From: Promethearchaeota archaeon
GTDB lineage: Archaea > Asgardarchaeota > Heimdallarchaeia > Hodarchaeales > Hodarchaeaceae
Assembly: GCA_048938105.1 (NCBI GenBank)
Contig: JBHLMN010000009.1
Location: 1 to 64,000, forward strand
Length of the DNA stretch: 64,000 bases
Direction: 5' to 3'
The position numbers and the translations under genes are program-made. Below, one piece after another: positions 21,905 to 44,112 of this stretch (its first letter is position 1; each line of letters opens with the position of its first letter). A model generated the notes under the pieces. It was given only the letters and a program-made list of their open reading frames with translations. It did not search any database and was not told the DNA's origin.

Positions 21905-24900
21905 AAAGCCTTGGGAGCCTGATGATATGAATTGGACTAGATTCAAAAAGTTTATTTTAAGGAATTATGTTATTATAAGTTTAGTTTTCTTATTTATTTT
22001 CTCTGGAATATCAAATACAACAACAAAGGTAATAAATTCAAGGATTGGTAATGATAATACTCAGATAAATAGTATAACAAATAATAGAGACAAGAGAAAT
22101 GTTTTGGAGAGCATCTCTGCAAATTCTATTGAGTTAATATCACCAGAAAATACGACATACACTTCCCCAATGAGTGGTTATTACCCTGCAACGTTTGGGT
22201 TTGAAAATGAACTCCATGGTACTTTGGGAACAAATCTTGAGTTCTTAGATGAATATGATATTGTAGGTAGTCCCCAGGATTATGTAGGTATAGGGATCAT
22301 TGATGGGCCTTATTATGGCCATAATAAAATGCTGTCCATTGGTGATGCACAGGGAGGGACTTATACTTATGGAGTCCATCATTTTGATAATCCTCCGATA
22401 GCAGGGACAATAGAATTTTATCTTCTCGTAGATAATATTCATTCGCCCTATACAGGTACCCATTATTTTCATTTGCGGGCGATGGATGATACAATTGCAA
22501 TTGAAATGCGAATTAATGTTATTGGACAATATTTGAGTAACATTGAGTATTTTGACGGTAGTTCTTGGCAACTCATCTCGGATCAAGTAAGTTATAACTG
22601 GTACCATCATTCAATAACATTTGATTGTGATGCAGGCACCCAAGGACTTTTTACTTGGATCACAAAATTTGAAAATGGAACTGAAACGGGACGAGTGGAA
22701 AATATTGACTTCTTAAATGATTTGAATACCCTTGATGAATTATATTTAGCAAGTGATGTTCCAACGTATTTTGGATCCACCTTATATGATGCCTTTGGAT
22801 TTAGCTGGGATCCTAATTATACTGTAGGAGATAACCTGAACGAAGGATTACTACTAAGTTATAATCCCCTTACTTCTTTAGATTGGACAGGTTACTCGCT
22901 AGATGGGGGAGCTAACGTCACAATTCCTGGAAATACCACCATTCCAATGCCATCAGAGGGAAGTCATACAATTCAAGTTTATGGGAATGATTCAGTAGGA
23001 ACCTATTATCAATCTGAATTAAGATCCTTCCAAGTTTGGCCTATTGAGATATTAACACCCGAAAATAGAATATACCATGCACCCATGAGTGGTTATTACC
23101 CTGCAACCTATGGATTTGAAAATGAGGATGGGACATTTGGTACGAGTATTGAATTTGTGGATGAGTATTACGCGGCAGGAGGATACACTGGAATTTCGGT
23201 TTGGGACGGACCAACAAATGGTCACATCAAGTATCTACATGTGGGCGATGCGCAGGATTCTACTACTACTTGGTGCGTGCATCATTTTGATAATTCACCA
23301 ACAACAGGAATAATAGAATTCTTCGTGGTTGCTCATGGAACTGTTGGGGAACATCACTTTGCATTGAGAGCTTCAGATGATACAATTGCGGTTGAAATGA
23401 GAGTCTACGTTGATGGAGGAAAATTTCAATATTTTGATGGCACTTCTTGGCAAAATATCGCAGATTTGGTTGTAGACACATGGTTCCATCACTCAATCGT
23501 ATTTGATTGTGAAGCAGGAGGTGGTCAAGGACAATTTGATTGGATTGTAAGCTATGAAAATGGCACTGAAGTTGGGAGTGTAAATAGTATCAGTTTTCAA
23601 AATGATTTGGATAAACTTGATGAATTATATATAGGAAGTACTATATTAACTTATTTAATCTCTACTCAATGGGATGCCTTTGGATTTAGCTGGGATCCTA
23701 ATTATAATGTAGGAGATAACCTGAACGAAGGATTACTACTGAGCTATTATACCCCTACTCCTCTAAATTGGACTGGTTACTCACTAGATGGCGGAGCCAA
23801 CATCACAATTCCTGGAAATACCACCATTCCAATACCATCAGATGGAGATCATATGATTCAGGTTTTCGCGAATGATTCAGAAGGAAACTATTATCAATCT
23901 GAATTAAGATCTTTTCAAGTTATCTCTATTGAAGTATTATCGCCCAAAGATAAAACGTACAATACACCAATGAACGGCTATTATCCTGCCTCCTGGGGCT
24001 TTGAAAATAATGTTCCTGGGAGGGAGCCTTCTGATTGGAATCTTGAGCCTTCAGGTGGTACTAGCTTCTATCGAGTTAATGCAGAATATGATGGCCATAA
24101 AAACGTTCTAGAAATGCGAAAAATCGGTGGTACAACGCAAGTTATGGTAACAAAGAACTTCTTATCAAGTGCTACTGTTGGAACCGTTGAATTCTGGCTC
24201 CAAAAGGATACGGAAGAACAATCAGATCCCACACGGTTTTTTTTGCTTAATTCTTCAGGTCATCCTCAGATAATATTTTATGTTGAAGAAAAAGATCTTT
24301 ATCACCGTAATTACGGGGAAGGGAGTTTACTTGCTTGGGATGTTATCGCTAAGGATACCTGGTATCATTTTCGGATAGATTTTGATGTCTCACAAAGTGG
24401 TTGGCATCTTCAGGTTAATGGTGTATGGTATGGCGGCACCATACCTTTTTATTATTCAGTGGCGAATCGTGTCTCAGGATTCCAAATGGCATCAATCGAC
24501 ACTGGAGATTATTCAGATTATGGTGCTTTTTTGGATGCTGTAGGCTATTCTTGGGATCCTGGCTATATTACTGGGGCTAATCTCAATGAAGGATTACTAC
24601 TGAGCTATAATACCTCTACCCCTCTGAATTGGACTGGTTACTCACTAGATGGCGGAGCTAACGTCACAATTCCTGGAAATACCACCATTCGAGTACCATC
24701 AGATGGAAGTCATACGATTCAAGTTTATGGGAATGATTCACTAGGTAATTGGTATTTCTCGAAACCAAGATCCTTCCAATGTTTTTTAAATCCCCCAAGT
24801 ATCACTAGTCCGCCTGATCAGCTCGATATTGAATTAGGTGATATAGGGAGAAATATTTTATGGTCTGTTTCTGATCCCAATCCTGCTAATTACACAGTAT

Positions 24901-27900
24901 ATCGAAATGGAACAGTATTCGAGGAAGGAAACTTGACTACAACTCCATCACCTGTTTTTATTTCATTGGATGGACTATCAGAAGGAAACCATAATTTTAC
25001 TTGTGTAGCAAGGAATATATTTGCAATGCCTGCCAGTGATGAGGTCTGGATTACTGTAGGTCCTGATGAGACCCCACCTGACATTTCTTCCCCTTCTGAT
25101 ATTAGTTTTGAAGATGGCTCTATTGGGTATACGATTCTTTGGACTGGTTCTGACATCTTTCCTTGGTGGGCATCCGTCCATAGAAACGATGACCTAATTT
25201 ATGATCAAGCGTGGGTTGGAAATGACATTAGAATCTCTCTTGATGGCCTCCCAATTGGATTATCCATCTTCAATTGTACTCTCTTTGATGAAGCTGGTAA
25301 CTCAGTTTATGATGTTGTAGAGGTTAATGTAACTGAAGCTGTTCTAGATACTATCGCACCAAAGGTAACTGCACCAGGTCCCCTAGAGTTTGAGGAAGGA
25401 ACTACAGGTCATATCCTCACCTGGATCTGTTCAGATGATCATCCATATGCCTATAAAATCCAGATAAATAATATTGATGAGCTTTTCAATCCTTGGCGTG
25501 GAGGAAATGTTGTTTATTCTGCGGATGATCTTCCTGTTGGCGTATGGGAAGTAAACCTCACTCTTTACGATCTCTCAGGTAACCTAGCTTCAAGCCCAGT
25601 AATCGTTACAGTTATTCCAGAAGCACCTGATACAACAGCTCCGACGGTTTCTCACCCTGAAGAGTTAATTGTTGCTGAGAATACTGCTAGTACAATTGTC
25701 TGGGAAGTAGATGATAAGCATCCAGACTGGTATACCATTTCTAGAAATGGATCAGTCATCTATGAACAACATTACTGGGTGCCAGGGATCATTCAATTTC
25801 ATTTTACCTCATTACCTCTTGGGACCTGGGAATTTAAGTTAACTGTATGGGATGAGGCAGGAAATAGTGCATCGGGTATTGCAATCGTTATAGCACTTCC
25901 TGGGGATGCATTCGATATTAATCCTCCAGACATTTCCCATGTAGCAGATATACAATATACCTATGGGACCACAAATCATTATCTTATCGTCTATCTATTT
26001 GATGAGCATCCTCAGGGTTATTCAATCTCTATAACTACAGATACTAATATTACTGAACAAATATGGACCTCACCTAATATTCGGGTTGATTTTTGTTTAG
26101 ATGATTTAGCAGTGGGTAGTTATACAGTTACGATAACTGCTTGGGACGCATTTGGCAATACTGAGACAAGTACCGTTAAAGTTACTGTTCAGGGAGATAT
26201 AACCCCACCCACTATTTCTTACCAACCTGATATCACTGCTTATGAAAATACCAATATTACGCTGACCTGGCAAATATCTGACGAGGCTCCCTCTCATTTC
26301 GAGCTAATCTTTTTGCCTGAGGGAAAAGTAAATCAATCAGGATCGTGGTCTGGTAATACAATCGAAATAATTATTAGAAATCTACCTACTGGTACATATC
26401 GATATAGACTTATTGTTTATGATGTTTCAGGTAACTATGCTGTAGATGATTTTACACTAACAGTGATTGAAAGTAGGGGAGCTCCTGGTTTTGAAATCCT
26501 CACTGCTGTACTATTTTTGCTGTTTTTCGCGAGATTTCGGGCTTATTTCAATTTAAAAAGGAGGAAAGGAAAATGAGTATTGTCCAGGAATTAAAATTTG
26601 GAGTTAAGAACCATTGGAAGCTGTTTTATGCTGTTATTGCACTTTTGATCCTTAGCTGTCCCGTAGCAGCTCAGTATTACACACCAGATATTAAATTCTC
26701 TAATTTTATGCCCACTAAAATCCCAAGACTAATGAAACAATCTTCTAATAATGATCAGGCTAAATCAAAAATACCTGATTACTTGTATAATTTCCTATCA
26801 GAAGAAGATCAAAAGAACCTGGAAACATACGGAGAATATTTGGAGTACCTTTCAGACGAAGACTTGGAAATGCTAGAAACATATGATGAATATTTACAGC
26901 AACTTGCGGATCCAAACCAACAATCTTCAAAAGCTTATGATTATTTTCAAAATTGTTGGCACCCTGTTGAAGAAACCATATCAGTCTCATCTGAGGAATT
27001 GCCAAACTTTGAAGAATCACTACAATCATTTTTCTTTAATGATTGGGTCAAAAAACCATCCTATTCTTTAGCAGTTGAATCAGATGAAGAAATTGAATCC
27101 ATAAACACCTGTGATGATCATAAAATTGAAACAACTACGATATTAAAAAAAGATAATTGTGAATTAGTTGATACAACAATTATTTCTGAAAATCAAGAAA
27201 TTTATCAAAGATCAGTGTTTACTGAAGACAGTGAGCTTACACAGATTACAGAAATTTCTGGGAAACCTCAAATTAAACTTATTGAACCAGATTTTTCTGG
27301 ATTCGATGATATTAAGATTCCGATCCGCTCTAAAGAAGAGGCTGGAAAGGGAGCTGGTCAAACTGAGTTAGAATGGGTCACTAAAACTATTGATGTTAAG
27401 ATGGGCTTTGAATTTGATCTTCCTAGTTTTAACTATAGGCTGTATGCATCTATTTATTTCACAAGATTCCGAGCTTGGGCTATATTTGAGGCAGGATTTC
27501 ATTTTATCTTTCCTGTGAGGCTGATTATTGAATATCCTGCAGAAGTAATAGAAGGTCTAACTTACGATTTTAAAGTAACTCTTATTCCTCTTGATCTTCC
27601 GGACTATCATGAGTTTGAAATTAAATTCTTGTTAGATGTTGGCGTTGCAATGGATGTATTGCATCTTTGGTGGGGAACAAAGCGAATATCAATTCCATAT
27701 TGGTGGTTCTGGAAATGGCGTAGTATAACAATAGTAATCCCTTGGCTATATGGGGATTGGAAAAATGTCTATTATTATCCGCTCATTTATTATAATTTCC
27801 ATAAATATGACGATTATCAAACACCTTTAGCGGGAGAAAAAGCCAAGATAGATTTTAATTTTGACGTAGATCTTCTTCCGATCATCGCAGATTTAAATAT

Positions 27901-30900
27901 TCCTTATTTATCTACGATTTGTGATGCATTATCATATTTCTTGGAAATTGGTGTCGGTCTTGGATTCCTCGATATATCTGGAAAAGCAGTTACAGGACAA
28001 CTAGCTGCTTCAGCTGGTGATTCACCTAAGACAAGGAATCCTGTGAGCTGGACTTATTCTGGGGAAGAAAATATCTTAGAATTTGGTATTCCGCATGAAG
28101 CAGGAGAATTACTTGGACTTTCTGTTGATGAAATGATATTCCATGCTAGCAAAGTAGTCTGGAGCCCAGAGTTTTTCCTTTACTTTAAAAATGTAAACTG
28201 GTGGATTTTTACAATTCCTCTTCGAAATTGGATCGGTGGATTTCGTGTCCCAATTCTGGGTATTAATTTCGGAGAAATGAACCTTCCGTCCTTATATTCA
28301 TATGATATTAGCGCATCTTCAATAATATCTGAAGACGTTTATGATTTCCTAATGGATGTTGAAGAAATAACTCCAGTTGGAGGCCAAGGGGCATTAGCGA
28401 CCATCAATACATATGACCAGATGTATGAAATAACATTGCAAAATATCGCAGGTAGATCTGATGTGATTGAACTAGAGGTTCAAGGATTACCAGAAGGTTA
28501 CACAGCTACTTTTGATAGAGCAGTACCCCAATATAGCATTGGTTCGATTCCTACAACTGTGAATTTAATTATTTCACCACCAGAATATATTAAAGCATCC
28601 CCAGGAGAGAAAACATTTAATATTGTAGCAACAAGTCAAGCGAAACGGAATCTGAATGTCCCAGACCCTACAACGACTAAATCTGCTACTTTAATTGTTC
28701 CCTCTACTTCAGATTTCAGTCTTAATGTTGATTTAGGAACTGATATCGATAAAGTTATCCAGGTTAATTACGGAGATTATATCCCAATAGGGTTCTTGGG
28801 GGAAAACTTAGGCAATCAAAATGACACAATAACTGTAAACGCAACGCTTTATTCACCAGATTCAACCCTAAGAAGTTGGGAAGAAAGTTACGCAGTTGAA
28901 CCATATGGTTCAGGATCAAATCAGTATTATTCAGGTGAGTATGGATTTACGTATAATCGAACTGATCTCTATCCCTCTCCGGGTGTTTATACGCTAGATA
29001 TTGAAGCAACAAGTCAAAGGTCACCCACTAATGTTAAGAAAGTTCGATTAGCTCTTAATTTCACCCCACATTACGACTTAGAAACTTCAATTAGTCCCAA
29101 TTCTACAACTATGTTCGCTAATTTCGCGTCTAATTTCACATTCACATTAACAAATATGGGAAATGCCATGGATAACTACACATTGACATCTAGTGGATGG
29201 GATGACTATATCACTTTTATAACTGGAAATAAAATCCTAAATCTCGCTCCTGATGATCATGAGGAAATAATAGTGGCGCTGAAAATACCAAAGTCAGAAA
29301 TAAATAACACAGATGCGGGAGTATATGATTTTCGAATTACCGCTACATCTGATAGTAGCGGAGGAGCGATATTCTCATCAACAGATGTCAGTGTGAATGT
29401 TCTCGAACCTGATTATGTCCCTCCAGCAATCATTTCTGTTGATACACCGTACGATTATGAAGCACTTGAGTTTAAAACTTCACCCTGGGGTTTAGAATAC
29501 CCATATTCAGAAGAATTTACATATGGGCCATCCTGGAAAGCGATCGATGATTATCCGAATAAATACTCAGTTTTTATTGATAATAATCCTTATACGGGTC
29601 CTCTTTACTTAGGATCATGGCAGAATGATACTCCTATATTTGTTCCTGTAACAGGAATAAATGCATTAGATGAAGGAATCCATAATATTACTGTAACATT
29701 CAATGATACCTCTGGAAATGTGGCTACTGAACAGATCTGGATCACAATCACGCCATCTGATACCACGATGCCAATTGTAACACCACTTTCAAGTGATTGC
29801 AGCGTACCAGAGAACTATGTGGAATATGATGTAATTCCTCTTGTCTGGAATTGTACTGAAGAATATCTTTTGGATATAAGTATATATAAGAATGGGACTA
29901 AGTTTCCAATCTATGAATATTTTAGAGAGAGTCTTAAAGTAGAACAAAATCCAGATATAAAACATAATTTTATTGTAACATGTTATATTCCTGAAACGTA
30001 TTTATTAGACGAAGCTGACCCTCCATATGTTTGGAATATTACACTCTCTATTCAGGATGGCGGAGGTAATTCTACCTCAGCAAGTATATTCATTATAGTG
30101 ACTGATCCCGACAATGATCCTCCCGAATTTACGATTTCACCTGAAATTTATTCTTCGGCTTATCTCAAACACGGTAAGACATTTAATTTCACAGCAACAG
30201 ACACTTATCCAGCCAAATATGAGCTTTGGATTAATTCAACTCTTTCACAAAATGGCACATGGAAATCTGGAATTCCTGTCGAATTTCAGGTAGACGAGTT
30301 AAATCTAAGTGTTGGAGCCAATGATTTAGAACTTTATGTATATGATCTCGTAGGCCAGTATGCTTATGCTCAATGGATCTTTACACTTCAAGATATTGAT
30401 CCACCAACGTTAGTGGTTGCACCAAATGATTTCATGGTCTATGAACATAATATAACGGAAGGGGAGCTTCCTTACTGGCAATTACACGATTTTGATCCCA
30501 ATCCTGGCATATACCGAATTTATCAAGATAGTGTTTTGGTCGAAGAGGGCAACTGGACTATTGGTAACCACTTTATCCCAGTCCCAATTGCGAACTTAAC
30601 ACCAGGGCTACATAATATTAGAGCTGAATTTCGAGATGCGACTGGCAATATGATTCCCTCTTCTTTTGATGTGACCGTTAAAGATGTCCTTGCACCATAT
30701 ATTTGGCCACACGATCCCATTCATTACGAACCACTCTATACAGCCTCATGGTTTGAATTTTTCATCTCAGAACCACACTTAGAGAGCTATCAATTGTTCA
30801 GAAATGGGACCTTAATCACTGAAGATTCTTTGTCAGAAGATTTTCCGTTTATATTCGTAAATATTGCGGATTTGTCTTCAGGCTATCATATCTATACAGT

Positions 30901-31620
30901 AGAAGTCACTGACGAGTCAGGAAATATAGGCAAAGAATTAGTTGAGATTTATGTTACTGATTACACTCCGCCTTTCATAATAAGGCCACCAGATCTTATA
31001 TTCTCTGAAGGAACCATAGGCCATTCAATACTTTGGGAGATCATAGAAGCAAATCCTCATAACTATTCTCTGTATCTCGATGATCAGCTAATTTCATCAG
31101 GAACACTTACAGACATGAACATGTCAATTTCTGTAGATACACTTGAATTGGGATTACACAAGTATGTTCTTGTAGTCTATTGTCAATTTGGTTTTTCACA
31201 TAGTGCATCCTGTTATGTTGTAGTTGTGGATACTGCGGCGCCAACATTGTCTCATGTTTTCGATTGTAGATACACCGAGGGAGATCCTAATGCGGAAATT
31301 GTTTGGAAGGCATACGATCTACACCCGTCTTCATACACGATAAAACATAATGGAACTACTATTATAACGGAGACTTGGACAGGAACCGACATCACTTTGC
31401 CGTTAATCGGATGGTTTGCTGGAACTCATAATATTGAGCTGATTGTAAGTGATACTTCAGGAAACACTGCCATGGATGAAGTCAAACTTAAAATAATCAA
31501 AGAAGAATTATATAGTACAGTGAAAGGACCGAGTAGCACTCCAGGGTTCATTTTAATTTATGTTCTAGTGGTTTTTACAATCCTTGCACTAGTTAAATAT
31601 CAAGTGAAAAAGCGAAATTA
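21905..31620 (+). repeat. Copy 1 of a diverged about 10-kb direct duplication (A+B cassette)
   Basis: Long near-identical nucleotide blocks shared with 34246-44112, e.g. tgagaccccacc.gacatttcttc; gaagaagatcaaaagaacctggaaacata. Confidence 0.9.
21927..26576 (+). CDS. Giant surface protein A1: 3 x (Ig domain with inserted LamG/ConA-like module), Ig-repeat stalk, PGF-CTERM-like anchor
   Basis: N-terminal hydrophobic segment; three about 300-aa repeats (GYYPA..GFEN...DAFGFSWDP...WTGYSLDG...GNDS); D..PP Ig repeats; APGFEIL-TM-KRRKGK. Confidence 0.85.
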   Translation: MNWTRFKKFILRNYVIISLVFLFIFSGISNTTTKVINSRIGNDNTQINSITNNRDKRNVLESISANSIELISPENTTYTSPMSGYYPATFGFENELHGTLGTNLEFLDEYDIVGSPQDYVGIGIIDGPYYGHNKMLSIGDAQGGTYTYGVHHFDNPPIAGTIEFYLLVDNIHSPYTGTHYFHLRAMDDTIAIEMRINVIGQYLSNIEYFDGSSWQLISDQVSYNWYHHSITFDCDAGTQGLFTWITKFENGTETGRVENIDFLNDLNTLDELYLASDVPTYFGSTLYDAFGFSWDPNYTVGDNLNEGLLLSYNPLTSLDWTGYSLDGGANVTIPGNTTIPMPSEGSHTIQVYGNDSVGTYYQSELRSFQVWPIEILTPENRIYHAPMSGYYPATYGFENEDGTFGTSIEFVDEYYAAGGYTGISVWDGPTNGHIKYLHVGDAQDSTTTWCVHHFDNSPTTGIIEFFVVAHGTVGEHHFALRASDDTIAVEMRVYVDGGKFQYFDGTSWQNIADLVVDTWFHHSIVFDCEAGGGQGQFDWIVSYENGTEVGSVNSISFQNDLDKLDELYIGSTILTYLISTQWDAFGFSWDPNYNVGDNLNEGLLLSYYTPTPLNWTGYSLDGGANITIPGNTTIPIPSDGDHMIQVFANDSEGNYYQSELRSFQVISIEVLSPKDKTYNTPMNGYYPASWGFENNVPGREPSDWNLEPSGGTSFYRVNAEYDGHKNVLEMRKIGGTTQVMVTKNFLSSATVGTVEFWLQKDTEEQSDPTRFFLLNSSGHPQIIFYVEEKDLYHRNYGEGSLLAWDVIAKDTWYHFRIDFDVSQSGWHLQVNGVWYGGTIPFYYSVANRVSGFQMASIDTGDYSDYGAFLDAVGYSWDPGYITGANLNEGLLLSYNTSTPLNWTGYSLDGGANVTIPGNTTIRVPSDGSHTIQVYGNDSLGNWYFSKPRSFQCFLNPPSITSPPDQLDIELGDIGRNILWSVSDPNPANYTVYRNGTVFEEGNLTTTPSPVFISLDGLSEGNHNFTCVARNIFAMPASDEVWITVGPDETPPDISSPSDISFEDGSIGYTILWTGSDIFPWWASVHRNDDLIYDQAWVGNDIRISLDGLPIGLSIFNCTLFDEAGNSVYDVVEVNVTEAVLDTIAPKVTAPGPLEFEEGTTGHILTWICSDDHPYAYKIQINNIDELFNPWRGGNVVYSADDLPVGVWEVNLTLYDLSGNLASSPVIVTVIPEAPDTTAPTVSHPEELIVAENTASTIVWEVDDKHPDWYTISRNGSVIYEQHYWVPGIIQFHFTSLPLGTWEFKLTVWDEAGNSASGIAIVIALPGDAFDINPPDISHVADIQYTYGTTNHYLIVYLFDEHPQGYSISITTDTNITEQIWTSPNIRVDFCLDDLAVGSYTVTITAWDAFGNTETSTVKVTVQGDITPPTISYQPDITAYENTNITLTWQISDEAPSHFELIFLPEGKVNQSGSWSGNTIEIIIRNLPTGTYRYRLIVYDVSGNYAVDDFTLTVIESRGAPGFEILTAVLFLLFFARFRAYFNLKRRKGK

Positions 31621-31621
31621 A
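26573..31621 (+). CDS. Giant surface protein B1: acidic N-terminal region, Trp-rich domain, Ig-like repeats, PGF-CTERM-like anchor
   Basis: Signal peptide (..PVAA/Q); 4-bp ATGA overlap with A1; many Ig repeats; TPGFIL-TM-KKRN. Confidence 0.85.
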   Translation: MSIVQELKFGVKNHWKLFYAVIALLILSCPVAAQYYTPDIKFSNFMPTKIPRLMKQSSNNDQAKSKIPDYLYNFLSEEDQKNLETYGEYLEYLSDEDLEMLETYDEYLQQLADPNQQSSKAYDYFQNCWHPVEETISVSSEELPNFEESLQSFFFNDWVKKPSYSLAVESDEEIESINTCDDHKIETTTILKKDNCELVDTTIISENQEIYQRSVFTEDSELTQITEISGKPQIKLIEPDFSGFDDIKIPIRSKEEAGKGAGQTELEWVTKTIDVKMGFEFDLPSFNYRLYASIYFTRFRAWAIFEAGFHFIFPVRLIIEYPAEVIEGLTYDFKVTLIPLDLPDYHEFEIKFLLDVGVAMDVLHLWWGTKRISIPYWWFWKWRSITIVIPWLYGDWKNVYYYPLIYYNFHKYDDYQTPLAGEKAKIDFNFDVDLLPIIADLNIPYLSTICDALSYFLEIGVGLGFLDISGKAVTGQLAASAGDSPKTRNPVSWTYSGEENILEFGIPHEAGELLGLSVDEMIFHASKVVWSPEFFLYFKNVNWWIFTIPLRNWIGGFRVPILGINFGEMNLPSLYSYDISASSIISEDVYDFLMDVEEITPVGGQGALATINTYDQMYEITLQNIAGRSDVIELEVQGLPEGYTATFDRAVPQYSIGSIPTTVNLIISPPEYIKASPGEKTFNIVATSQAKRNLNVPDPTTTKSATLIVPSTSDFSLNVDLGTDIDKVIQVNYGDYIPIGFLGENLGNQNDTITVNATLYSPDSTLRSWEESYAVEPYGSGSNQYYSGEYGFTYNRTDLYPSPGVYTLDIEATSQRSPTNVKKVRLALNFTPHYDLETSISPNSTTMFANFASNFTFTLTNMGNAMDNYTLTSSGWDDYITFITGNKILNLAPDDHEEIIVALKIPKSEINNTDAGVYDFRITATSDSSGGAIFSSTDVSVNVLEPDYVPPAIISVDTPYDYEALEFKTSPWGLEYPYSEEFTYGPSWKAIDDYPNKYSVFIDNNPYTGPLYLGSWQNDTPIFVPVTGINALDEGIHNITVTFNDTSGNVATEQIWITITPSDTTMPIVTPLSSDCSVPENYVEYDVIPLVWNCTEEYLLDISIYKNGTKFPIYEYFRESLKVEQNPDIKHNFIVTCYIPETYLLDEADPPYVWNITLSIQDGGGNSTSASIFIIVTDPDNDPPEFTISPEIYSSAYLKHGKTFNFTATDTYPAKYELWINSTLSQNGTWKSGIPVEFQVDELNLSVGANDLELYVYDLVGQYAYAQWIFTLQDIDPPTLVVAPNDFMVYEHNITEGELPYWQLHDFDPNPGIYRIYQDSVLVEEGNWTIGNHFIPVPIANLTPGLHNIRAEFRDATGNMIPSSFDVTVKDVLAPYIWPHDPIHYEPLYTASWFEFFISEPHLESYQLFRNGTLITEDSLSEDFPFIFVNIADLSSGYHIYTVEVTDESGNIGKELVEIYVTDYTPPFIIRPPDLIFSEGTIGHSILWEIIEANPHNYSLYLDDQLISSGTLTDMNMSISVDTLELGLHKYVLVVYCQFGFSHSASCYVVVVDTAAPTLSHVFDCRYTEGDPNAEIVWKAYDLHPSSYTIKHNGTTIITETWTGTDITLPLIGWFAGTHNIELIVSDTSGNTAMDEVKLKIIKEELYSTVKGPSSTPGFILIYVLVVFTILALVKYQVKKRN

Positions 31622-32586
31622 TGTTTTATTTTGATGCAGGATTAAAAATGAACCTCTATCTCATTTTAAGATGGTTTATCCCATTTGTAGCTACACTCAT
31701 CTGCTTCTATATCTGTCTACAAAGTATTCTCATTTACAGACAGAATCCTAAGGATAAGTTCTTAATTTATTTTATCCTAGCTTTAGCAATTGCGGCAATA
31801 GGCCTGTTATTCTATTCTATGACCCCGTTTATAAAAGAAGATCAGAAAATTCTTGCTGAAATATCCTTAGGAGGTAGTTTTATTTTATATTGTATTGCAT
31901 TAATATTTTGTTTTCAATTTTGGCAAATGCTTTATCGAGAAGTTCCTTGGATTACAAAAATATTTTACTTAGCTACTGGTGCAGGCTTTGTTTTTCTGCT
32001 TTATGACCCTTGGAAAATATACATATACGAAAATTTGGGGTTTCATCAGACTGTTTCTTTTAAACTAATTGTACCAATAATCATCCAAGGTGGTTGTATA
32101 TTTATAATATTATTCAAAACTGTCCATACTATTAGAAAAAAAATTGACCAGGAGTTCGTATTAACTGAAAAGCACCAGCAAAAGTATGTAAATAGCGATA
32201 CTAAAAGCAAATCATCAGCAACAAGAAGACGAAATCTACAAACAAAAAAGAAACGCCTAAATCTTATTATCTATTCTTGGTTAATTGGTTTTTTTTTGGC
32301 AGTCATAGGTTTAACACTTCCAAACCCTTATGGTTTTAATCTTGATGTAATAGGATCGTTAATAATAATTATTCCTCAGGCGTATATCCTAATAAAGGAT
32401 AAGGAACTTTTGTTCTCTTTAAGAGTACAAAAAACGAAAGATAAAGCAATTAAGCTTCAAGAAAGCTTTTTCAAACTCCAACAGCAGGTTTCTCACCAAA
32501 TCCTAGAGACGGAAGTTCAAGCTTTGGTTAAATTTATTGAGAAAGCTGACTCTCTATTATACTTTCAAGAGGAACATAATGTCTGA
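31621..32586 (+). CDS. Seven-transmembrane protein with long basic TM5-TM6 loop and cytoplasmic helical tail
   Basis: Seven hydrophobic segments counted by eye; start overlaps the B1 stop (TAATG). Confidence 0.75.
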   Translation: MFYFDAGLKMNLYLILRWFIPFVATLICFYICLQSILIYRQNPKDKFLIYFILALAIAAIGLLFYSMTPFIKEDQKILAEISLGGSFILYCIALIFCFQFWQMLYREVPWITKIFYLATGAGFVFLLYDPWKIYIYENLGFHQTVSFKLIVPIIIQGGCIFIILFKTVHTIRKKIDQEFVLTEKHQQKYVNSDTKSKSSATRRRNLQTKKKRLNLIIYSWLIGFFLAVIGLTLPNPYGFNLDVIGSLIIIIPQAYILIKDKELLFSLRVQKTKDKAIKLQESFFKLQQQVSHQILETEVQALVKFIEKADSLLYFQEEHNV

Positions 32587-32623: not shown

Positions 32624-33382
32624 CTAACTTAATTTCTCTACCATATTACGTATTTTTTCAAATAGTTCAGAATCCTCACGAATAAGAAGATTATCCCAAA
32701 AATCCATTTCTGGATCGAGGGGAATGGAGCCTAAAATTTTAATGTCAATATATTGTTTAAATTCTGAAGTTAAACTGTCCAATAGATTATTTACCTTTTC
32801 AGAGGATCCATGTGGGACTTGATTATAAATTAAAAAGAATAACCGGGGTTTCAAGGTCTTTTTCAGCGCAGTATAGATAGTTTGAATAACATAAAGTGTA
32901 ATATCCAAAGAATGAATCGTTGGCCGATGCACCAGAATTATTGAATCAGCTACTGTCAAGGCACTCACGCTACTCAAAGAGAGTTCAGGTGCTGTATCAA
33001 GAAATAATTTCTCGTATCCTAGTTTTTCCAGACTCTCCCGTAATTGAGAAAACTGCTGAAGAGCGACCCAATGCGGTTTTTCAGTCGTTCCTAATAATCC
33101 TTTACCTAATACTGGTTTAGGATTGGCATAAATAGCGTCAAGATTTGAAATAACGGTCGGATAAATGATTTCTTTCTCACTACTTCTGTTCAGTAAGAAA
33201 TCGTTTCCATATTTAATAGGAGGTATTTTGGAAGTTAAATTTGATTGAAAAGAGGGAGAACCAAAATCACAATCCATTACAATGGTTTTTATTCCTGCAC
33301 GAGCAGAAGCCACCGCCATATTTAAAGCAATAAAACTTTTTCCTGATCCTCCTCTGAAGCTGTGAGTAGCAATAATCTTCAT
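32624..33382 (-). CDS. MinD/ParA-family P-loop ATPase
   Basis: Deviant Walker A HSFRGGSGKS, DCD, LDTAP, ADSIILV, YNQV, IPLD. Confidence 0.88.
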   Translation of the reverse strand: MKIIATHSFRGGSGKSFIALNMAVASARAGIKTIVMDCDFGSPSFQSNLTSKIPPIKYGNDFLLNRSSEKEIIYPTVISNLDAIYANPKPVLGKGLLGTTEKPHWVALQQFSQLRESLEKLGYEKLFLDTAPELSLSSVSALTVADSIILVHRPTIHSLDITLYVIQTIYTALKKTLKPRLFFLIYNQVPHGSSEKVNNLLDSLTSEFKQYIDIKILGSIPLDPEMDFWDNLLIREDSELFEKIRNMVEKLS

Positions 33383-33407: not shown

Positions 33408-34079
33408 TTAGTGATCTAGCTGCTTCTCGACTTCAATCTTTCTTATTCTGTACTGGTTTATATTATCTTTTGTCTCACGTATTATTAATCCTCTGTTTAA
33501 TAAATAAAAGAGTCCGTTTTTAATTTCAATTTCGGATAGCTTGTCACTTTGAAGTAGACCTTGTTCAGTTAGGGGTTGTTGTTGTAAGAGAGTTACTCCG
33601 ATCATATGAGCAGCTCTATTCTCTTTACTAAGCTGTTCTAAGAAATTCGTATCATAGAGAGTTCGGGGGAATGTATAATAAACTGCCTTCTTTTCTTCAA
33701 AGCGTGTGAAACCCAGTTCACGACCATAAAATTTCAATAACTTCTTTTTTTGAACTAATTTCTCTGCACGAACGTATGCAGTATTATGGTGAATGTCAAG
33801 TTCCTCAGCGAGATCGATACGTGAAATAGGCATCCCGTGATTTGTTTCATCAAGTTTATTAATGGCATCCATGGTTTGTTGTAAGTACCCAACTAGCTCT
33901 GATTCCTCCTCAGGTTGTAATAAATCTGTAAAAAAGTCTAGTCGCGATGAAACATCTTCTATCATTTTGTTTAACTGAGAAATTTCGAAACGTATTTCTT
34001 CCAGTGTTTTCATGACGTCATTTACTGTCATTTCGGTGTTTGTTTTAGATTGCATAGAGTACATCGGCCCCAGCTTCAT
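33408..34079 (-). CDS. Coiled-coil plus tandem winged-helix protein, probable DNA-binding regulator
   Basis: Heptad N-terminus (LEEIRFEISQLNKMIEDVSSRL); HTH ISRIDLAEELDIHHNTAYVRAEKL; second wHTH-like LSEIEIKNGLFYLLNRGLI. Confidence 0.65.
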   Translation of the reverse strand: MKLGPMYSMQSKTNTEMTVNDVMKTLEEIRFEISQLNKMIEDVSSRLDFFTDLLQPEEESELVGYLQQTMDAINKLDETNHGMPISRIDLAEELDIHHNTAYVRAEKLVQKKKLLKFYGRELGFTRFEEKKAVYYTFPRTLYDTNFLEQLSKENRAAHMIGVTLLQQQPLTEQGLLQSDKLSEIEIKNGLFYLLNRGLIIRETKDNINQYRIRKIEVEKQLDH

Positions 34080-34245
34080 AAAATATCTTCATTTATAGAA
34101 TTCACCTGATATTTTTTTAAATATTATCATTCAATATATTCAAATATTTTTTGATTCAGTAATATTTTTAAATATATCGGTTAAGTTAAATATGTACTCG
34201 AAAAAATACTAGATTTCCAACAATTGACCTCCCTCTGAACAATAT

Positions 34246-37200
34246 AAGCCTTGATTGGGAGATGATACGTTGAAGAAGAGTCTAATAGGATTAATAATAA
34301 TTGTACCGTTAATCAATCGCTTTATTTATGAAAGAAAGGATAGAAGATTTATCTTCAGGAATTTTGTTGTTATTGGTTCAATATTCTTATTTATTTTCTC
34401 TGGGATATCAAATACTAATACAAGGGTATTGAATTCAAGGATTGGAATTGATACAACTCAGATAGGTAATATAGCACATGATACAAACAAGGGGAATGTT
34501 TTAGAGAGCATAGCTGCAAATTCAATTGAGTTATTAACACCTGAAAATAAAACATACCATGCACCTATGAGTGGCTATTATCCTGCCTCTTGGGGTTTTG
34601 AAAATAATGATCCTGGGATGGAGCCTTCTGATTGGTACCTTACACCTACAAATGGCAGTAGCTTCTATCGAGTTAATGCGGAATACGATGGCCATAAAAA
34701 CGTTCTAGAAATGCGAAAATATAATGGCACAACACAAGTTACGGTAATAAAGAACTTCTCATCAAGTGTTACTGCTGGAACCGTAGAATTCTGGCTCCAA
34801 AAAGATACGGGAGAGAGTGGAGTCCATCTTTCAGATCCTACACGATTTTTTTTGCTTAATTCTTCAGGTCATCCTCAGGTAGTATTTTTTGTTGAAAGAA
34901 TGGATCTTTATCCGTATAATTATATACCTACTTATGATGTTGTCCCAAAGGATACCTGGCATCATTTTCGAATAGATTTTGATGTTTCACAAGGTGGCTG
35001 GCAACTCCAGTTTAATAACTATCAGTTTGGCAGTGGGTATACCTTGCCCTTTTATTATCCAGTGGTGGATCATGTCTCAGGATTCCAAATGGCGTCGACC
35101 GACTTTGCAGATTTTTCGGATTATGGTGCCTATTTGGATGCTGTAGGCTATTCCTGGGATCCTGGCTATACTGTTGGGGATAATCTCAATGAAGGACTAC
35201 TACTGAGTTATTATACCCCTACCCCTCTAAATTGGACTGGCTACTCACTAGATGGGGGAACTAACGTCACAATTCTTGGAAATACAACCATTCCAATGCC
35301 ATCAGATGAAATTCATACTATTCAAGTTTTTGGCAATGATTCACTAGGTAATTGGTATTCCTCGGAGTTAAGACCCTTCCGATGCTCAGTATCCCTAAAT
35401 ATCTATACACCCGAAGAGAAAACATACCTTGCACCAATGAGCGGTTATTATCCTGCCACGTTTGGGTTCGAAAATGAAATCGATGGTACTGAAGGAACAA
35501 ATCTTGAGTTCATTGATGAATATTATCAACCAGGTGAGCAGAATGCATATATAATTGTCAATGATGGGCCATGGTATGACCATAACAACTTTTTGGTGGT
35601 TTATGATAGAGAAACTGCGTATAATACCTCTGGGGTTCATTATTTTGATAATCCTCCAACAACAGGGACAATAGAATTTTATAATTGTTATGCAGCAGAC
35701 TCAGATGGGTACCATTATTTCATTTTACGGGCTATGGATGATACTGCTGCAATTCAAATAAGAATTGATGTTGAAGGTATAGTTGAGTATTTTGACGGTA
35801 CTTCTTGGCATCTAATCTCGGATCAAGTGTATTATGAATGGTACCATCATTCAATCACATTTGATTGTAAAGCAGGCACAAAAGGACAATTTACTTGGAT
35901 CACAAGAGATACAGATGGAACTGAAGTGGGTCGAGTTGAAAATATTGACTTCTTAAATGATTTGAATACAATTGATGAATTGTATTTAGGAAGTGATGAT
36001 GCTGCAAATTTTGGAGTTACATATTGGGATGCTTTTGGGTTCAGCTGGGAACCTAATTATAATGTCGGAGATAATCTGGACGAAGGATTATTACTAAGTT
36101 ATTATACCCCAACACCCCTAGTTTGGACTGGTTATTCACTCAATGGAGGAACAAACATCACAATTCTTGGAAATACAACCATTCCAATGCCTTTCGATGG
36201 AACTCATACGATTCAAGTTTTTGGGAACGATTCAGCAGGTAATAGGTATTCCTCGGAGCTAAGATCTTTCCAAGTTGCGTCTATTGAGTTATTAACACCC
36301 GAAAATATAACCTACAATGCACCAATGGGCGGTTATTATCCTGCAACATTTGGGTTCGAAAATGAACTCCATAAAACTAGAGGAACAGATATTGAATTCA
36401 TTGATGAATGGTATGAAGCAGGTGAGGTAACAGAAATAGTGGTCTATGAAGGGCCATTGGACGGCCATTACAACTTTTTGGTCATAGCTGATGACATAGA
36501 TGCCTCTGGGGCAAATGCCTCTGGGGTCCATTATTTTGACAATCCTCCAACAACAGGGACAATAGAATTTTATAATTATTATTCAGTTCCTATGTCATTA
36601 GGATCCCATTATTTCATTTTACGGGATATAGATGATACTGTTGCAGTTCAAATAAGAATTAATACTGATGGAGGTAGAATTGAGTATTTTAACGGTACTT
36701 CTTGGCAAAATATCACGAATCAGGTTCCTATCACTTGGTACCATCATTCAATCACATTTGATTGTGAAGCAGGCTCAAATGGACGATTTACTTGGATCAC
36801 AAGAGATACAGATGGAACTGAAGTGGGCCGAGTGGAAAATATTGAATTCTTAAATGATTTAAATACAATTGATGAATTGTATTTAGGAAGTGATGATCCT
36901 GCAAATTTTGGAGACACACTATGGGATGCTTTTGGATTCAGTTGGGATCCTAATTATAATATCGGAGATAATCTGGACGAAGGATTGTTACTAAGTTATA
37001 ATACTCCCACACCCCTAGTTTGGACTGGTTATTCACTCAATGGAGGAACAAACATCACAATTCTTGGAAATACAACCATTCGAATGCCTTTAAGTGGAAC
37101 TCATACAATTCAAGTTTTTGGTAATGATTCGGCAGGTAATTGGTATTCCTCGGAACTGAGATCGTTCGAAACTATAACTCCCCCTAGTATCATTGGCCCA

Positions 37201-40200
37201 GCCGATTTTGCTATTGAGCTTGGTGACATAGGTAAAAACTTTTTATGGTCTCTTTCTGATCCTTATCCTGCTAATTATATAGTATATCGAAATGGGACAA
37301 TTTTCAAGGAAGAAAATTGGTCTGCAGTTGATCTTACTGTTTATATTTCGTTGGATAGACTATCAGAAGGAAACCATAATTTTACCTGTGTTGCAAGAAA
37401 TACATTTGACAGGATAGCCATTGATGAAGTCTGGATTACTGTTGGTCCTGATGAGACCCCACCCGACATTTCTTCTCCTTCTGATATTAGTTTTGAAGAA
37501 GGTTCTATTGGGTATTCAATTCTTTGGACTGGTTCTGACAACTTTCCCTGGTGGGCATCCGTCCATAGAAACGATTCCCTAATTTATGATCAAGCGTGGG
37601 TTGGAAATGACATCGAAATTTCTCTTGATAACCTCACAGCTGGATTATACATCTTCAATTGTACTCTCTTTGATGAACCAGGGAACTCGGCTTATGATAT
37701 TGTAGAGGTTAATGTAACTGAAGCTGTTCCAGATACTAGGCCACCAAAAGTAACAGCACCAGATCCCCTAGAGTTTGAGGAAGGAACTACAGGTCATATC
37801 CTCACCTGGATCTGTTCAGATGATCATCCATATGCCTATAAAATCCAGATAAACGATACTGATGAGCTTTTCAGCGCTTGGCGTGGAGGAAATGTTACTT
37901 TTACTGTAGATGATCTTCCTGTTGGTGTATGGGAAGTAAATCTCACTCTTTACGATCTCTCAGGTAACTTAGCTTCAAGTCCAGTAATCGTCACAGTCAA
38001 TCCAGAAGCCCCTGATACAACCGCTCCGACGGTTTCTCACCCTGCAGAGTTAATTATTGCTGAGAATACTGCTGGTACAATTGTCTGGGAAGTAAGCGAT
38101 AAACATCCAGACTGGTATACAATTTCTAGAAATGGAACAGTCATCTATGAACAACATTACTGGGTGTCAGGGATCATTCAATTTCATTTCACCTCATTAC
38201 CTCTTGGGACCTGGGAATTTAACTTAACTGTATGGGATGAGGCGGGAAATAGTGCATCGGGTATTGCAATCGTTAAAGTACTCCCTGGGAGTGCATTCGA
38301 TACTAATCCTCCAGAAATTTCCCAAGTAAAGGATATACAATATACCTATGGGACTACAAATAATTACCTCATTGTCTATCTATTTGACAAACATCCTCAG
38401 GGTTATTCAATCTCTATAACTACAGATACTAATATTACTGAACAAACATGGACCTCACCTAATATTCGGGTTGAAATTTGCTTAGATGGTTTAGCAGTGG
38501 GAAGTTATACAGTCACAATAACTGCTTGGGACACATTTGGTAATACGGAGGCAAGGACTGTTAAAGTAACTGTTCAGGGAGATGTCAACCCACCCACTAT
38601 TTCTTACCAACCTGATATTACCGCTTACGAAAATACTAATATCACGTTGACTTGGCAAGTATCTGACGAGTCTCCCTCTCATTTTGAGCTATTCATTTTG
38701 CCCGAGGGAAAAGTAAATCAATCAGGATCGTGGTCTGGTAATTCAATCAATATTACTCTGGGATATCTTCCTACTGGTACATATCAATATCAACTTATTG
38801 TTTATGATGCATCTGGTAACTATGCTGTGGATGATTTTACACTCACCGTGATTAAAAGTAGTAGGGTTCCAGGTTTTGAAATCCTCACTGCTGTGCTATT
38901 TTTACTATTTTTCACAAAATTTCGACTTTACTTCAATTTAAAAAGGAGGAAAGAAAAATGAGTTTTGTTCAGGAATTAAAATTTGGAGTTAAGAACCATA
39001 GGAACCTCATTTATGCGGTTTTTGCACTTTTGGTTCTTATTTCTCCAGTAGTAGCCCAGTTTTACACACCAGATATTGAACTCTCTGATTTTATACCCAT
39101 TCAAGTTCCAAGATTGATGAAACAAGATAATGGTCAGGCTAAATCGAAGGTACCTGATTATTTGTATAATTTCCTATCAGAAGAAGATCAAAAGAACCTG
39201 GAAACATATGGAGAATATTTGGAGTACCTTTCAGACGAAGACTTACAGATGCTAGAAACTTATAATGAATATTTACAACAACTTACAGATCCAAACCAAC
39301 AATCATCAAAAGCTTATGATTATTTTCTAAATTGTTGGAACCCTGTTGAAGAGACCATATCTGTCTCATCTGAAGAATTACCTAACTTTAGGGAATCACT
39401 TCAATCATTCTTCTTTAAAGACTGGGTCAAAAAACCATCCTATTCTTTAGAAGTCGAACCAGATGAAGAAGTTGAATCCATTAGCACTTCTGATGACCAT
39501 AAAATTGAAACTACTACCAGAGTAAGAAAAGATAACTGCGAATTAGTTGATACAACAATTATTTCTGAAAATAAAGAGATTCATCAAAGATCAGTGATTA
39601 CTGAAGATAGTGAGATTACTCAGATTTCAGAGATTTCTGGTAGACCCCGAATTCAGCTTATTGAACCTGATTTTTCAGGGTTTGATGATATTAGGATTCC
39701 AATCCACTCTAATGAAGAGGGTGGAAAGGGAGCTGGTCAAGCTGATTTAGAATGGGTCACTAAAACTATTGATGTAGAGATTGGTTATAAATTGTCTCTT
39801 TCTAATATCAAGGAAGACCTGAACTTTACTATAAAAAATTTTGTAAAATTCCAAGCATGGGCTATGTTTATAGTAACATTTCGTTTTGTTTTCCCTGTGA
39901 GGCTGATTATTGAATATCCTGCAGAAGTATTTGAAGGTCAAACTTACGATTTTAAAGTAACTCTTATTCCTCTTGATCTTCCTGACTATCCTGAGTTCAA
40001 GATTAAAGTCTTGTTATGGGCTGGCGTAAGACTGGATATAAAGTTACTGAAGCTTCAAGTGGTATGTAAACCACGATGGTATTGGGATATCTTCAAATGG
40101 AAATGGCGTAAAACAAAAAAGAAATTTTGTGGTCTTTCATTAAGCCCAGTGTGGAAGAATGTCTTTTATTTACCACTTGTACCAATGCATTCTTTCGAGA

Positions 40201-43200: not shown

Positions 43201-44112
43201 CACACGACCCTATTTATTATGAACCACTCTATACCGCCTCGTGGTTTGAGTTTTTCATCTCAGAGCCACACTTAGAGAGCTATCGCCTCTTCAGAAATGG
43301 AACATCAATCGCTGAAGGGACTTTGTCAGAGGATTTTCCGTTTATATTCGTGAGTCTTGCGGATTTGTCTACAGGCTATTATACTTATACAGTGGAAGTC
43401 ACTGACGAGTCAGGAAATATAGGTACAGAATTAGTTGAGGTTCATGTTACTGATTACACTCCCCCGTTCATAATAAGACCACCAGACCTTGTTTTCTCCG
43501 AAGGGACCACAGGCCATTCAATACTTTGGGAAATCATAGAAGCAAACCCTCACAACTATTCTCTCTATCTCAATGATCAGCTAATTTCTTCGGGAACGCT
43601 TACAAACATGAACATGTCAATTTCTGTGGATACCCTTGAATTGGGATTACACAAGTATATCCTCGTCGTTTATTGTCAATTTGGATTTTCACATGCTGCA
43701 TCCTGTTACGTTGTTGTTGTGGATATTACTACACCGACATTGTCTCAAGTTTTCGATTGTAGATTCGTTGAAGGGGATCCCAATGCAAAAGTTGTTTGGA
43801 AAGCATACGATCTACATCCATCCTCATACACAATAAAACATAATGGAACCACTATTATAACAGAAACTTGGACAGGAACCGACATCACATTACCATTAAT
43901 TGGATGGTTTGCTGGAACTCATAATGTTGAGCTGATTGTAAGTGATACCTCAGGAAACACAGCCACAGATGAAGTCAAACTTAAAATAATTAAAAAAGAA
44001 TCATATACTACTTTGAAAGGACCGAGTAGCGCTCCAGGGTTCATTTTAATGTATACTATAATGGTTTTTATAATCTTAACACCAATTAAATTTCGTTTGA
44101 AAAAGCGAAAAT
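34246..44112 (+). repeat. Copy 2 of the A+B cassette duplication
   Basis: Similarity begins at aagccttg...gatgata and ends at tgaaaaagcgaaa, matching the ends of copy 1. Confidence 0.9.
34255..38961 (+). CDS. Giant surface protein A2 (paralog of A1, modules in different order); probable TTG start 34270
   Basis: Same repeats and stalk as A1; VPGFEIL-TM-KRRKEK. Confidence 0.85.
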   Translation: MGDDTLKKSLIGLIIIVPLINRFIYERKDRRFIFRNFVVIGSIFLFIFSGISNTNTRVLNSRIGIDTTQIGNIAHDTNKGNVLESIAANSIELLTPENKTYHAPMSGYYPASWGFENNDPGMEPSDWYLTPTNGSSFYRVNAEYDGHKNVLEMRKYNGTTQVTVIKNFSSSVTAGTVEFWLQKDTGESGVHLSDPTRFFLLNSSGHPQVVFFVERMDLYPYNYIPTYDVVPKDTWHHFRIDFDVSQGGWQLQFNNYQFGSGYTLPFYYPVVDHVSGFQMASTDFADFSDYGAYLDAVGYSWDPGYTVGDNLNEGLLLSYYTPTPLNWTGYSLDGGTNVTILGNTTIPMPSDEIHTIQVFGNDSLGNWYSSELRPFRCSVSLNIYTPEEKTYLAPMSGYYPATFGFENEIDGTEGTNLEFIDEYYQPGEQNAYIIVNDGPWYDHNNFLVVYDRETAYNTSGVHYFDNPPTTGTIEFYNCYAADSDGYHYFILRAMDDTAAIQIRIDVEGIVEYFDGTSWHLISDQVYYEWYHHSITFDCKAGTKGQFTWITRDTDGTEVGRVENIDFLNDLNTIDELYLGSDDAANFGVTYWDAFGFSWEPNYNVGDNLDEGLLLSYYTPTPLVWTGYSLNGGTNITILGNTTIPMPFDGTHTIQVFGNDSAGNRYSSELRSFQVASIELLTPENITYNAPMGGYYPATFGFENELHKTRGTDIEFIDEWYEAGEVTEIVVYEGPLDGHYNFLVIADDIDASGANASGVHYFDNPPTTGTIEFYNYYSVPMSLGSHYFILRDIDDTVAVQIRINTDGGRIEYFNGTSWQNITNQVPITWYHHSITFDCEAGSNGRFTWITRDTDGTEVGRVENIEFLNDLNTIDELYLGSDDPANFGDTLWDAFGFSWDPNYNIGDNLDEGLLLSYNTPTPLVWTGYSLNGGTNITILGNTTIRMPLSGTHTIQVFGNDSAGNWYSSELRSFETITPPSIIGPADFAIELGDIGKNFLWSLSDPYPANYIVYRNGTIFKEENWSAVDLTVYISLDRLSEGNHNFTCVARNTFDRIAIDEVWITVGPDETPPDISSPSDISFEEGSIGYSILWTGSDNFPWWASVHRNDSLIYDQAWVGNDIEISLDNLTAGLYIFNCTLFDEPGNSAYDIVEVNVTEAVPDTRPPKVTAPDPLEFEEGTTGHILTWICSDDHPYAYKIQINDTDELFSAWRGGNVTFTVDDLPVGVWEVNLTLYDLSGNLASSPVIVTVNPEAPDTTAPTVSHPAELIIAENTAGTIVWEVSDKHPDWYTISRNGTVIYEQHYWVSGIIQFHFTSLPLGTWEFNLTVWDEAGNSASGIAIVKVLPGSAFDTNPPEISQVKDIQYTYGTTNNYLIVYLFDKHPQGYSISITTDTNITEQTWTSPNIRVEICLDGLAVGSYTVTITAWDTFGNTEARTVKVTVQGDVNPPTISYQPDITAYENTNITLTWQVSDESPSHFELFILPEGKVNQSGSWSGNSINITLGYLPTGTYQYQLIVYDASGNYAVDDFTLTVIKSSRVPGFEILTAVLFLLFFTKFRLYFNLKRRKEK

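Follow-up and report, generated by a model that had tools for sequence, protein, structure and literature searches.

A stand-alone seven-transmembrane sensor-like protein encoded beside a ParA/MinD-type ATPase in Asgard archaea

Stand-alone prokaryotic seven-transmembrane (7TM) proteins with a helix bundle of the type found in G-protein-coupled receptors (GPCRs) have been recognised as a shape, and their mode of signalling in the absence of a fused output domain is mostly obscure. This question is raised by an open reading frame (ORF) at 31621..32586 (+) in the stretch of DNA analysed here, hereafter the window, which covers positions 1-64,000 of contig JBHLMN010000009.1 in the assembly GCA_048938105.1 of a Promethearchaeota archaeon (Hodarchaeaceae); the genome has 5.85 Mb and is 99% complete. 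An initial annotation had described the product as a GPCR-like 7TM protein that must act through a separate partner, possibly the P-loop NTPase encoded next to it. We found that it is a prokaryotic stand-alone 7TM sensor-like protein lying within a module for which no description was found in the literature. The question of its partner becomes testable, considering that its constant companion is a highly conserved ParA/MinD ATPase of an arginine-variant type; as a rule it is also accompanied by a DNA-binding-like protein and by two giant surface proteins that are encoded under a conserved divergent promoter.

The 7TM protein and its family

The ORF has no internal stops, and its translation contains the strings that had been quoted for it (QTKKKR, IIIIPQAYILI, and KDKELLFSL). 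In its longest version it starts at 31621 and encodes 321 amino acids (aa). Since the database copy (P0006, 312 aa) and all the orthologues begin at the equivalent of Met10, the probable start is this methionine, which gives a coding sequence of 312 aa at 31648..32586 (+), located 26 nucleotides (nt) beyond the point where the upstream giant gene stops. The "ATGA" overlap of the longest version with that gene is probably not the true start. The ORF is a genuine, conserved gene.

Seven hydrophobic segments were detected in the Kyte-Doolittle hydropathy profile. The loop between transmembrane helices (TM) 5 and 6 comprises 49 aa, 15 of them lysine or arginine, and the outer loops carry 0-2 of these residues each; by the positive-inside rule, this distribution indicates that the N-terminus is outside and the C-terminus inside. 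The structural model was obtained with AlphaFold2 (AF2) from an alignment of 25 sequences (predicted local distance difference test (pLDDT) 83.9, predicted template modelling score (pTM) 0.77); the model built from the single sequence was poor (pLDDT 56) and was discarded. Boundaries were taken from this model together with hydropathy, alignment, and conservation. TM1-TM4 correspond to residues 3-32, 38-57, 67-96, and 101-119 (31654..32004, +), and they are followed by extracellular loop 2 (ECL2; residues 120-137; 32005..32058, +), which forms a beta-hairpin on the outer side between TM4 and TM5. After TM5 and TM6 (32059..32316, +), TM7 covers residues 232-250 (32341..32397, +). The seven segments and the outer N-terminus of the initial annotation were therefore recovered by hydropathy, by the positive-inside rule, and by the model. 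The long basic intracellular loop 3 that it proposed is basic indeed (residues 159-203 hold 14 lysines or arginines), but it was modelled as an extension of TM5 and TM6 into a cytoplasmic helical hairpin (residues 138-179 and 184-223) and not as a loop. Similarly, the 62 residues that follow TM7 (251-312; 32398..32583, +) form a cytoplasmic helical tail, but this consists of two long soluble helices, modelled with lower confidence, and the analogy with helix 8 is weak because the segment right after TM7 is not amphipathic (hydrophobic moment 0.16-0.29).

The conserved positions cluster in three places. In the outer half they are L69-A70-E71 and G75-G76-S77, which form a motif at the outer end of TM3 (residues 69-77, within 31654..32004, +), P121, W122, G131, Q134, and S137 in the ECL2 hairpin, and D233 and G236 at the outer end of TM7. 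At the cytoplasmic end of TM7 there is a near-invariant P243-Q244-A245-Y246 (32374-32385, +), with P243 kept in 100% of the sequences and Q244 and Y246 in 94%, which bears out the PxxY previously read at this place. The third cluster is the tail motif F296-I297-E298-K299-x-D301 (residues 296-301; 32533-32550, +). The basic TM5-TM6 hairpin is the least conserved region, and it keeps its basic composition while its sequence is poorly kept. This pattern would fit an outward-facing binding site and a cytoplasmic docking surface. In the family alignment and conservation table, conserved His, Cys, or Arg residues that could support hydrolase or sortase chemistry are absent.

When 1.84 billion cluster representatives were searched exhaustively with phmmer, only 23 proteins were found, 18 of them at E<=1e-10, and word-indexed searches added three further close relatives. 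The 23 proteins are 82-369 aa long, and no fused output domain was found in the detectable homologues among these representatives or with Pfam; the absence of a kinase or cyclase domain, already noted for the window's protein of 312-321 aa, thus extends to the family. The named sources are "Promethearchaeota archaeon" and "Candidatus Hodarchaeales archaeon," from which the hosts are taken to be Asgard archaea. The family is tiny and known only in Asgard metagenomes and genomes: solid matches were obtained in 4/399 species genomes of the phylum, namely, the window's genome, two others in its genus of 20 species, one of which has a tandem pair of 7TM genes, and one distant member. Weaker genome matches of the family profile (E 1e-4 to 7e-4) were actually MFS transporters and other unrelated membrane proteins, and a weak match of the single-protein search in the own genome (E 0.7) was an acyltransferase.

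Two variants were also observed. Tandem duplication of the 7TM gene occurs in two lineages (L012:8838-10942, which is G303, and L018:169-2172); these paralogues are ~35-39% identical to the window's protein and lie directly upstream of a convergent ParA-type gene. A distant subfamily (P0027, P0029, and P0033; L008:1501-2610; L013:8001-9062) shows 25-27% identity over TM2-TM7, has an alpha/beta domain of ~120 aa and of no assigned family in place of the helical tail, and lacks the ParA neighbour. For this extra C-terminal domain, language-model features pointed to roadblock/longin (0.82-0.84), a candidate that was rejected: it had no Pfam support, and hhalign against the genome's own Robl_LC7 proteins gave a probability of 0.5%.

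The convergent ATPase gene

The gene that converges on the 7TM gene, with a gap of 37 nt, encodes an ATPase of 252 aa (32624..33382, -). Its Pfam matches were AAA_31 (8.2e-15), CbiA (4e-12), and ParA (3.8e-8), all of them over the cut-offs. In the alignment of seven orthologues the motifs RGGSGKS/T (Walker A), MDCDF (DxD), and LDT/LDI (Walker B) are invariant or near-invariant, and in 7/7 of them an arginine (R10) replaces the signature lysine of the deviant Walker A motif (KGGxGK[ST]). The best sequence matches among solved structures were CapA-CapB chimeras (E 8e-8), followed by ParA, Soj, and MinD. The neighbour singled out earlier is therefore a P-loop NTPase and the right suspect, but it is a ParA/MinD-type ATPase and not a G protein.

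The two genes converge in 10 of the 11 core-family loci (the window, L001, L003, L012/G303, L014/L015, L016, L018, the P0015 contig, and G192), with gaps of ~7-112 nt in the loci other than the window. The sole exception, P0013, has no ParA neighbour and lacks the FIEKxD tail; its contig continues for 334 nt downstream of it and then ends. Across loci, conservation is much higher in the ATPase than in the proteins encoded next to it: the identity of the ATPase to the window's copy is 56-95%, compared with 55-65% for a helix-turn-helix (HTH)-like protein encoded upstream of it (92% in the nearest relative) and 35-47% for the 7TM protein (79% in the nearest relative). Three genomes of the same genus, all of which carry the 7TM gene, were the only ones in which close orthologues of the ATPase were found, and in G192 the pair is kept with neither the HTH gene nor the giant genes. 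Taking into account this co-occurrence and the retention of the pair alone in G192, the 7TM protein and the ATPase are the core of the module, and the ATPase is by far the best partner candidate for the 7TM protein, in agreement with the initial annotation.

A complex of both proteins was modelled by co-folding, using the 25-row alignment of the 7TM protein, ATP, and the 7-row alignment of the ATPase. The scores were 0.03 and 0.21 against a mark of 0.32, a result that gives no answer and counts neither for nor against binding. Distant ParA-like paralogues of other Asgard families (31-38% identity) were also considered and set aside, as they stand in another context with no 7TM gene and are uninformative about the pair. 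These loci (L045-L061; families f4, f7, and f2) have Walker A sequences YKGGTGKT or TRGGSGKT and form another conserved trio, in which an orphan of ~250 aa precedes the ParA-like gene; in the f7 loci a protein of 430-470 aa follows it, with DUF460 in the one tested (L051).

Membrane proteins that work with a separate deviant-Walker-A NTPase are known from CapA/CapB and Get1/2-Get3. CapB is a BY-kinase whose separate transmembrane activator, CapA, binds the kinase by its cytoplasmic C-terminal tail, and a conserved cytoplasmic C-terminal helix is shared by the 7TM protein and CapA-type partners. By analogy, the 7TM protein and its ATPase may represent a mechanistic parallel of these pairs. There are differences, however: CapB has a C-terminal tyrosine cluster, whereas the window's ATPase lacks it and has a GG-type Walker A of the ParA/MinD kind, and the membrane partners of CapA or Get type have 2 or 3 TM helices instead of seven.

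Receptor-like fold and related families

The 7TM protein has the seven TM helices, the outer N-terminus, and the helix arrangement of GPCRs. In the search of its model against the PDB with Foldseek there was no match at E<=1e-3; the listed matches were all GPCRs (template modelling score 0.3-0.5, best E 8.4e-3). In an exhaustive VIA structure search a designed GPCR-like fold scored 15.0, and scores of 12-14 were obtained for class A, C, and D GPCRs and for a taste receptor, of 12-13.3 for microbial rhodopsins and channelrhodopsins, and of Z 12.0 for alkaline ceramidase 3 (ACER3), so that the rhodopsin and ceramidase scores nearly equal those of the GPCRs. The best solved-structure matches were GPCRs and rhodopsins and not transporters; together with seven helices and the N-terminus outside, this leaves none of the signs that the initial annotation had named as speaking against itself.

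The sequence tells of no such relationship. A profile search of solved-structure sequences gave a chance-level match only (6w6l, E 0.0056). No Pfam family was matched consistently across the 25 family members, GPCR families were matched by 0/25 even at E<=5, and 7tm_1 (PF00001) had no match anywhere in the host genome. The alignment and the conservation table show neither the DRY and CWxP motifs nor the Asn that belongs to NPxxY, and the cysteines of the conserved disulfide between TM3 and ECL2 are missing as well; the end of TM3 reads Y..Y.H.L in place of E/DRY, and the P..Y of NPxxY, as PQAY, is the only class A motif present. As for the transducer, no G-alpha (PF00503) exceeded the cut-off in the 99%-complete genome, where the best match had 21.6 bits versus the required 48.8. 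Eukaryotic GPCRs (classes A, C, D, and T2R) have no sequence relationship to the 7TM protein; they carry an amphipathic helix 8 after TM7, unlike the tail described here, and they couple to heterotrimeric G proteins, whereas the conserved neighbour here is a ParA/MinD-type ATPase in a genome encoding no G-alpha. The resemblance is that of a shared generic GPCR/rhodopsin fold without detectable kinship: the GPCR-like topology and fold class of the initial annotation stand, and a specific relationship does not.

Could the protein nevertheless be a true relative of eukaryotic GPCRs, coupled to a GTPase, in the archaeal sister group of eukaryotes? Such kinship would agree with the N-out topology, with the GPCRs that head both solved-structure searches, with a conserved PxxY at the cytoplasmic end of TM7, where NPxxY would be, with an ECL2 beta-hairpin, as in many class A receptors, and with the Asgard host. 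We regard it as extremely improbable, considering the Foldseek null at E<=1e-3, the nearly equal rhodopsin and ceramidase scores, the failure of GPCR Pfam families, 7tm_1, and G-alpha, the missing DRY, CWxP, and cysteines, the tiny and patchy family, which does not look ancestral, and the ParA-type ATPase as conserved neighbour. Because no homology to GPCRs was found, citing the 7TM protein as an archaeal ancestor of GPCRs would be unwarranted. Another alternative is that it is a transporter, a channel, or an intramembrane enzyme whose targets are lipids, glycans, or the giant proteins and which the ATPase energises or gates in the manner of ArsA/ArsB; we consider this quite unlikely. Microbial rhodopsins, including the schizorhodopsins and heliorhodopsins of Asgard archaea, have a retinal lysine in TM7, whereas in TM7 here (residues 232-250) the first lysine is K250, at the cytoplasmic end, and no lysine is conserved; there is no sequence similarity either. 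The PAQR/alkaline ceramidase (CREST) proteins are N-in and have conserved His/Asp/Ser metal motifs, in contrast to the N-out 7TM protein, which has no conserved histidines and no conserved His/Asp metal site. The Cys-Arg-His catalytic residues of archaeosortases and exosortases (TIGR04178/PF09721) are not conserved in it either, there was no match to these families, and the archaeosortase-family genes of the genome are located elsewhere, on contigs C38 and C64. Among transporter and enzyme families, none was consistently matched by the family members.

The closest parallel was found among prokaryotic sensors. GPCR-like 7TM structures have previously been noted in bacterial sensor proteins (PMC10760455), and in archaeal kinases HisKA_7TM is recognised as a sensor domain (PMC5847659). 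The nearest predicted structures in the ESM Atlas were HisKA_7TM regions of histidine kinases, GGDEF proteins, and LuxR-type proteins, besides unannotated archaeal 7TM clusters, with template modelling scores of 0.57-0.66 over ~220-250 residues; both sides of this comparison are predictions, and generic 7TM bundles score similarly. HisKA_7TM was also among the nearest by language-model features (0.86), which is a lead only. Both have seven TM helices followed by a cytoplasmic helix, and a short P....LD spacing ahead of TM7 looks similar in the two. They differ in that HisKA_7TM is fused to a kinase, cyclase, or HTH output, whereas the 7TM protein has its 62-residue helical tail alone and, as constant companion, a separate ParA-type ATPase. 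Sequence comparison did not connect them: hmmscan with HisKA_7TM (PF16927) matched 1/25 members (E 0.066), and when the family alignment was compared by hhalign with 13 HisKA_7TM regions from Asgard archaea, the probability was 0.9%. The host genome also encodes two genuine HisKA_7TM kinases.

Gene module, possible mechanism, and alternatives

Upstream of the ATPase gene, and presumably in one operon with it, a protein of 223 aa is encoded (33408..34079, -) that we read as a coiled coil with two winged-helix-turn-helix (wHTH)-like segments. This domain reading was made from the sequence, and its database support is below threshold; the weak match to the wHTH protein AspA (E 0.32) was not significant. 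A wHTH-like protein of ~220 aa precedes the ATPase in the other loci, with the exception of G192, and in most orthologues it begins with a short basic N-terminus followed by the coiled coil. Its gene is divergent from one or two giant surface-protein genes in those loci; in the window these are A2 and B2 (34255..44114, +), which overlap and each encode a signal peptide, Ig-like domains, and a PGF-CTERM anchor according to the domain scan. The AT-rich divergent promoter region between them (34080..34254) contains blocks conserved across five orthologous loci whose proteins share only 55-70% identity. These blocks include TCTCT-N6-AGAGA near the wHTH start and a AATATTTATAAATATT-type palindrome; the near-palindrome of the window (34159-34177) is unique in it, and no copy was found in the window upstream of A1 or of the 7TM gene. 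The scan for sigma-70 promoters and intrinsic terminators was uninformative, as expected in an archaeon. A paralogous pair of giant PGF-CTERM genes, A1 and B1 (21927..31621, +), lies directly upstream of the 7TM gene, an arrangement seen only in the window among the loci examined.

ATPases encoded together with a DNA-binding-like protein are also found in FleN/FleQ and ParA/ParB, and here the two lie beside a palindrome-bearing promoter. The ATPases of those systems keep the signature lysine, whereas the one described here has arginine, and the DNA-binding partner here is an orphan, read as a coiled coil with a double wHTH. To our knowledge, a 7TM third component has not been reported for systems of either type.

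Taking these observations together, we propose that the 7TM protein functions together with the ParA-type ATPase as a stand-alone sensor or dock and, in most genomes, acts through the wHTH-like protein on the operon of giant surface proteins; we judge the chances of this reading to be about even. The 7TM protein would be the membrane sensor or docking subunit, and the convergently encoded ATPase the other half of a two-protein core. A ligand may be sensed at an outward-facing site formed by E71, G75-G76-S77, W122, Q134, and D233, while PQAY, the basic TM5/TM6 hairpin, and the FIEKxD tail helix would offer the ATPase a cytoplasmic docking surface. In most genomes the pair would work with the coiled-coil, double-wHTH DNA-binding protein, and the output would be the control or placement of two giant PGF-CTERM surface proteins, which are the likely target because the wHTH protein sits at their palindrome-bearing divergent promoter. 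A bolder version, which we find rather unlikely, is an Asgard "NTPase-coupled 7TM receptor," that is, a GPCR-shaped stand-alone receptor with a separate ParA/MinD-type (SIMIBI-class) ATPase as its transducer, in place of a fused kinase or a G protein. Sensing of a ligand or of surface contact in the outer pocket would control the docking of the ATPase on the PQAY/FIEKxD face, and the wHTH protein would set the expression or placement of giant, variable, adhesin-like PGF-CTERM proteins, the whole having arisen independently of GPCR-G protein signalling in the archaea most closely related to eukaryotes.

Several points weigh against a sensor that docks the ATPase. No evidence of contact between the two proteins, experimental or computational, was obtained, and their genes are convergent and not co-transcribed. 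The term sensor draws on fold class and conservation pattern only, because neither Pfam nor hhalign found sequence homology to any characterised sensor family. The proposed docking hairpin falls in the least conserved region of the protein, the regulatory output is deduced only from gene order and the conserved palindrome, and the comparison covers ~ten independent loci, many on short contigs and from related organisms.

The same synteny, with an ATPase of ParA/MinD type, would also suit a 7TM protein that senses no ligand and serves as a static membrane landmark or cargo adaptor. The ATPase would position it and the insertion sites of the giant proteins, by means of the nucleoid, with the wHTH protein as adaptor. 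Chemoreceptor arrays or carboxysomes are placed by this logic by other ParA/MinD ATPases, and ParA partner proteins often have a short basic N-terminus and then a coiled coil, which the HTH protein resembles. We find this reading rather doubtful, as a passive role needs neither the strongly conserved outward polar residues nor the ECL2 hairpin, and G192 has the pair with no HTH protein and no giant genes. It is very unlikely, in our view, that the ATPase and the HTH protein are a ParA/centromere-binding-protein partition cassette of a mobile island, with the 7TM protein and the giant proteins as passenger cargo. The module is patchy (3/20 species of the genus and 4/399 genomes of the phylum), its genomic surroundings differ between genomes, the order HTH-then-ParA occurs in archaeal partition operons, and the AspA match, although not significant, points the same way; but G192 retains the ATPase and the 7TM protein and loses the HTH protein, the reverse of what a cassette predicts, no integrase or replication gene was seen among the scanned neighbours, and housekeeping genes are present on the host contigs. 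If the proposed coupling of the 7TM protein to the ATPase is true, it would represent a new type of input for ParA/MinD biology and a new type of output for 7TM receptors, in the Asgard archaea, to whose surface contact with partner cells a central role is given in ideas on the origin of eukaryotes; if it is false, the 7TM protein is an orphan membrane protein of narrow distribution.

Other genes near the module were recorded. In Hodarchaeales metagenome-assembled genomes (L014:2175-3629; L015:1-1200), the 7TM gene is immediately preceded by a gene of the actin family (PF00022), and a TrmB-type HTH regulator of 226 aa, not found in the window, is divergent from the 7TM gene or genes at L012:7828-8508 (G303) and L082:13516-14196 (G192). 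In the window, a CheR methyltransferase whose C-terminal part matches a C2H2 zinc finger (PF00096, E 1.1e-5) is encoded at 14799-15821 (-), and no other chemotaxis genes were seen among the window ORFs scanned. At 44255-50184 (-) there is an ORF of 1633 aa, and it overlaps with the beginning of a protein of 343 aa that has squalene-hopene-cyclase-like repeats (PF13243). At 50801-53251 (+) a protein of 816 aa with right-handed beta-helix/NosD repeats is encoded, and repeats of the NosD type also form the first giant protein of the module in L014/L015.

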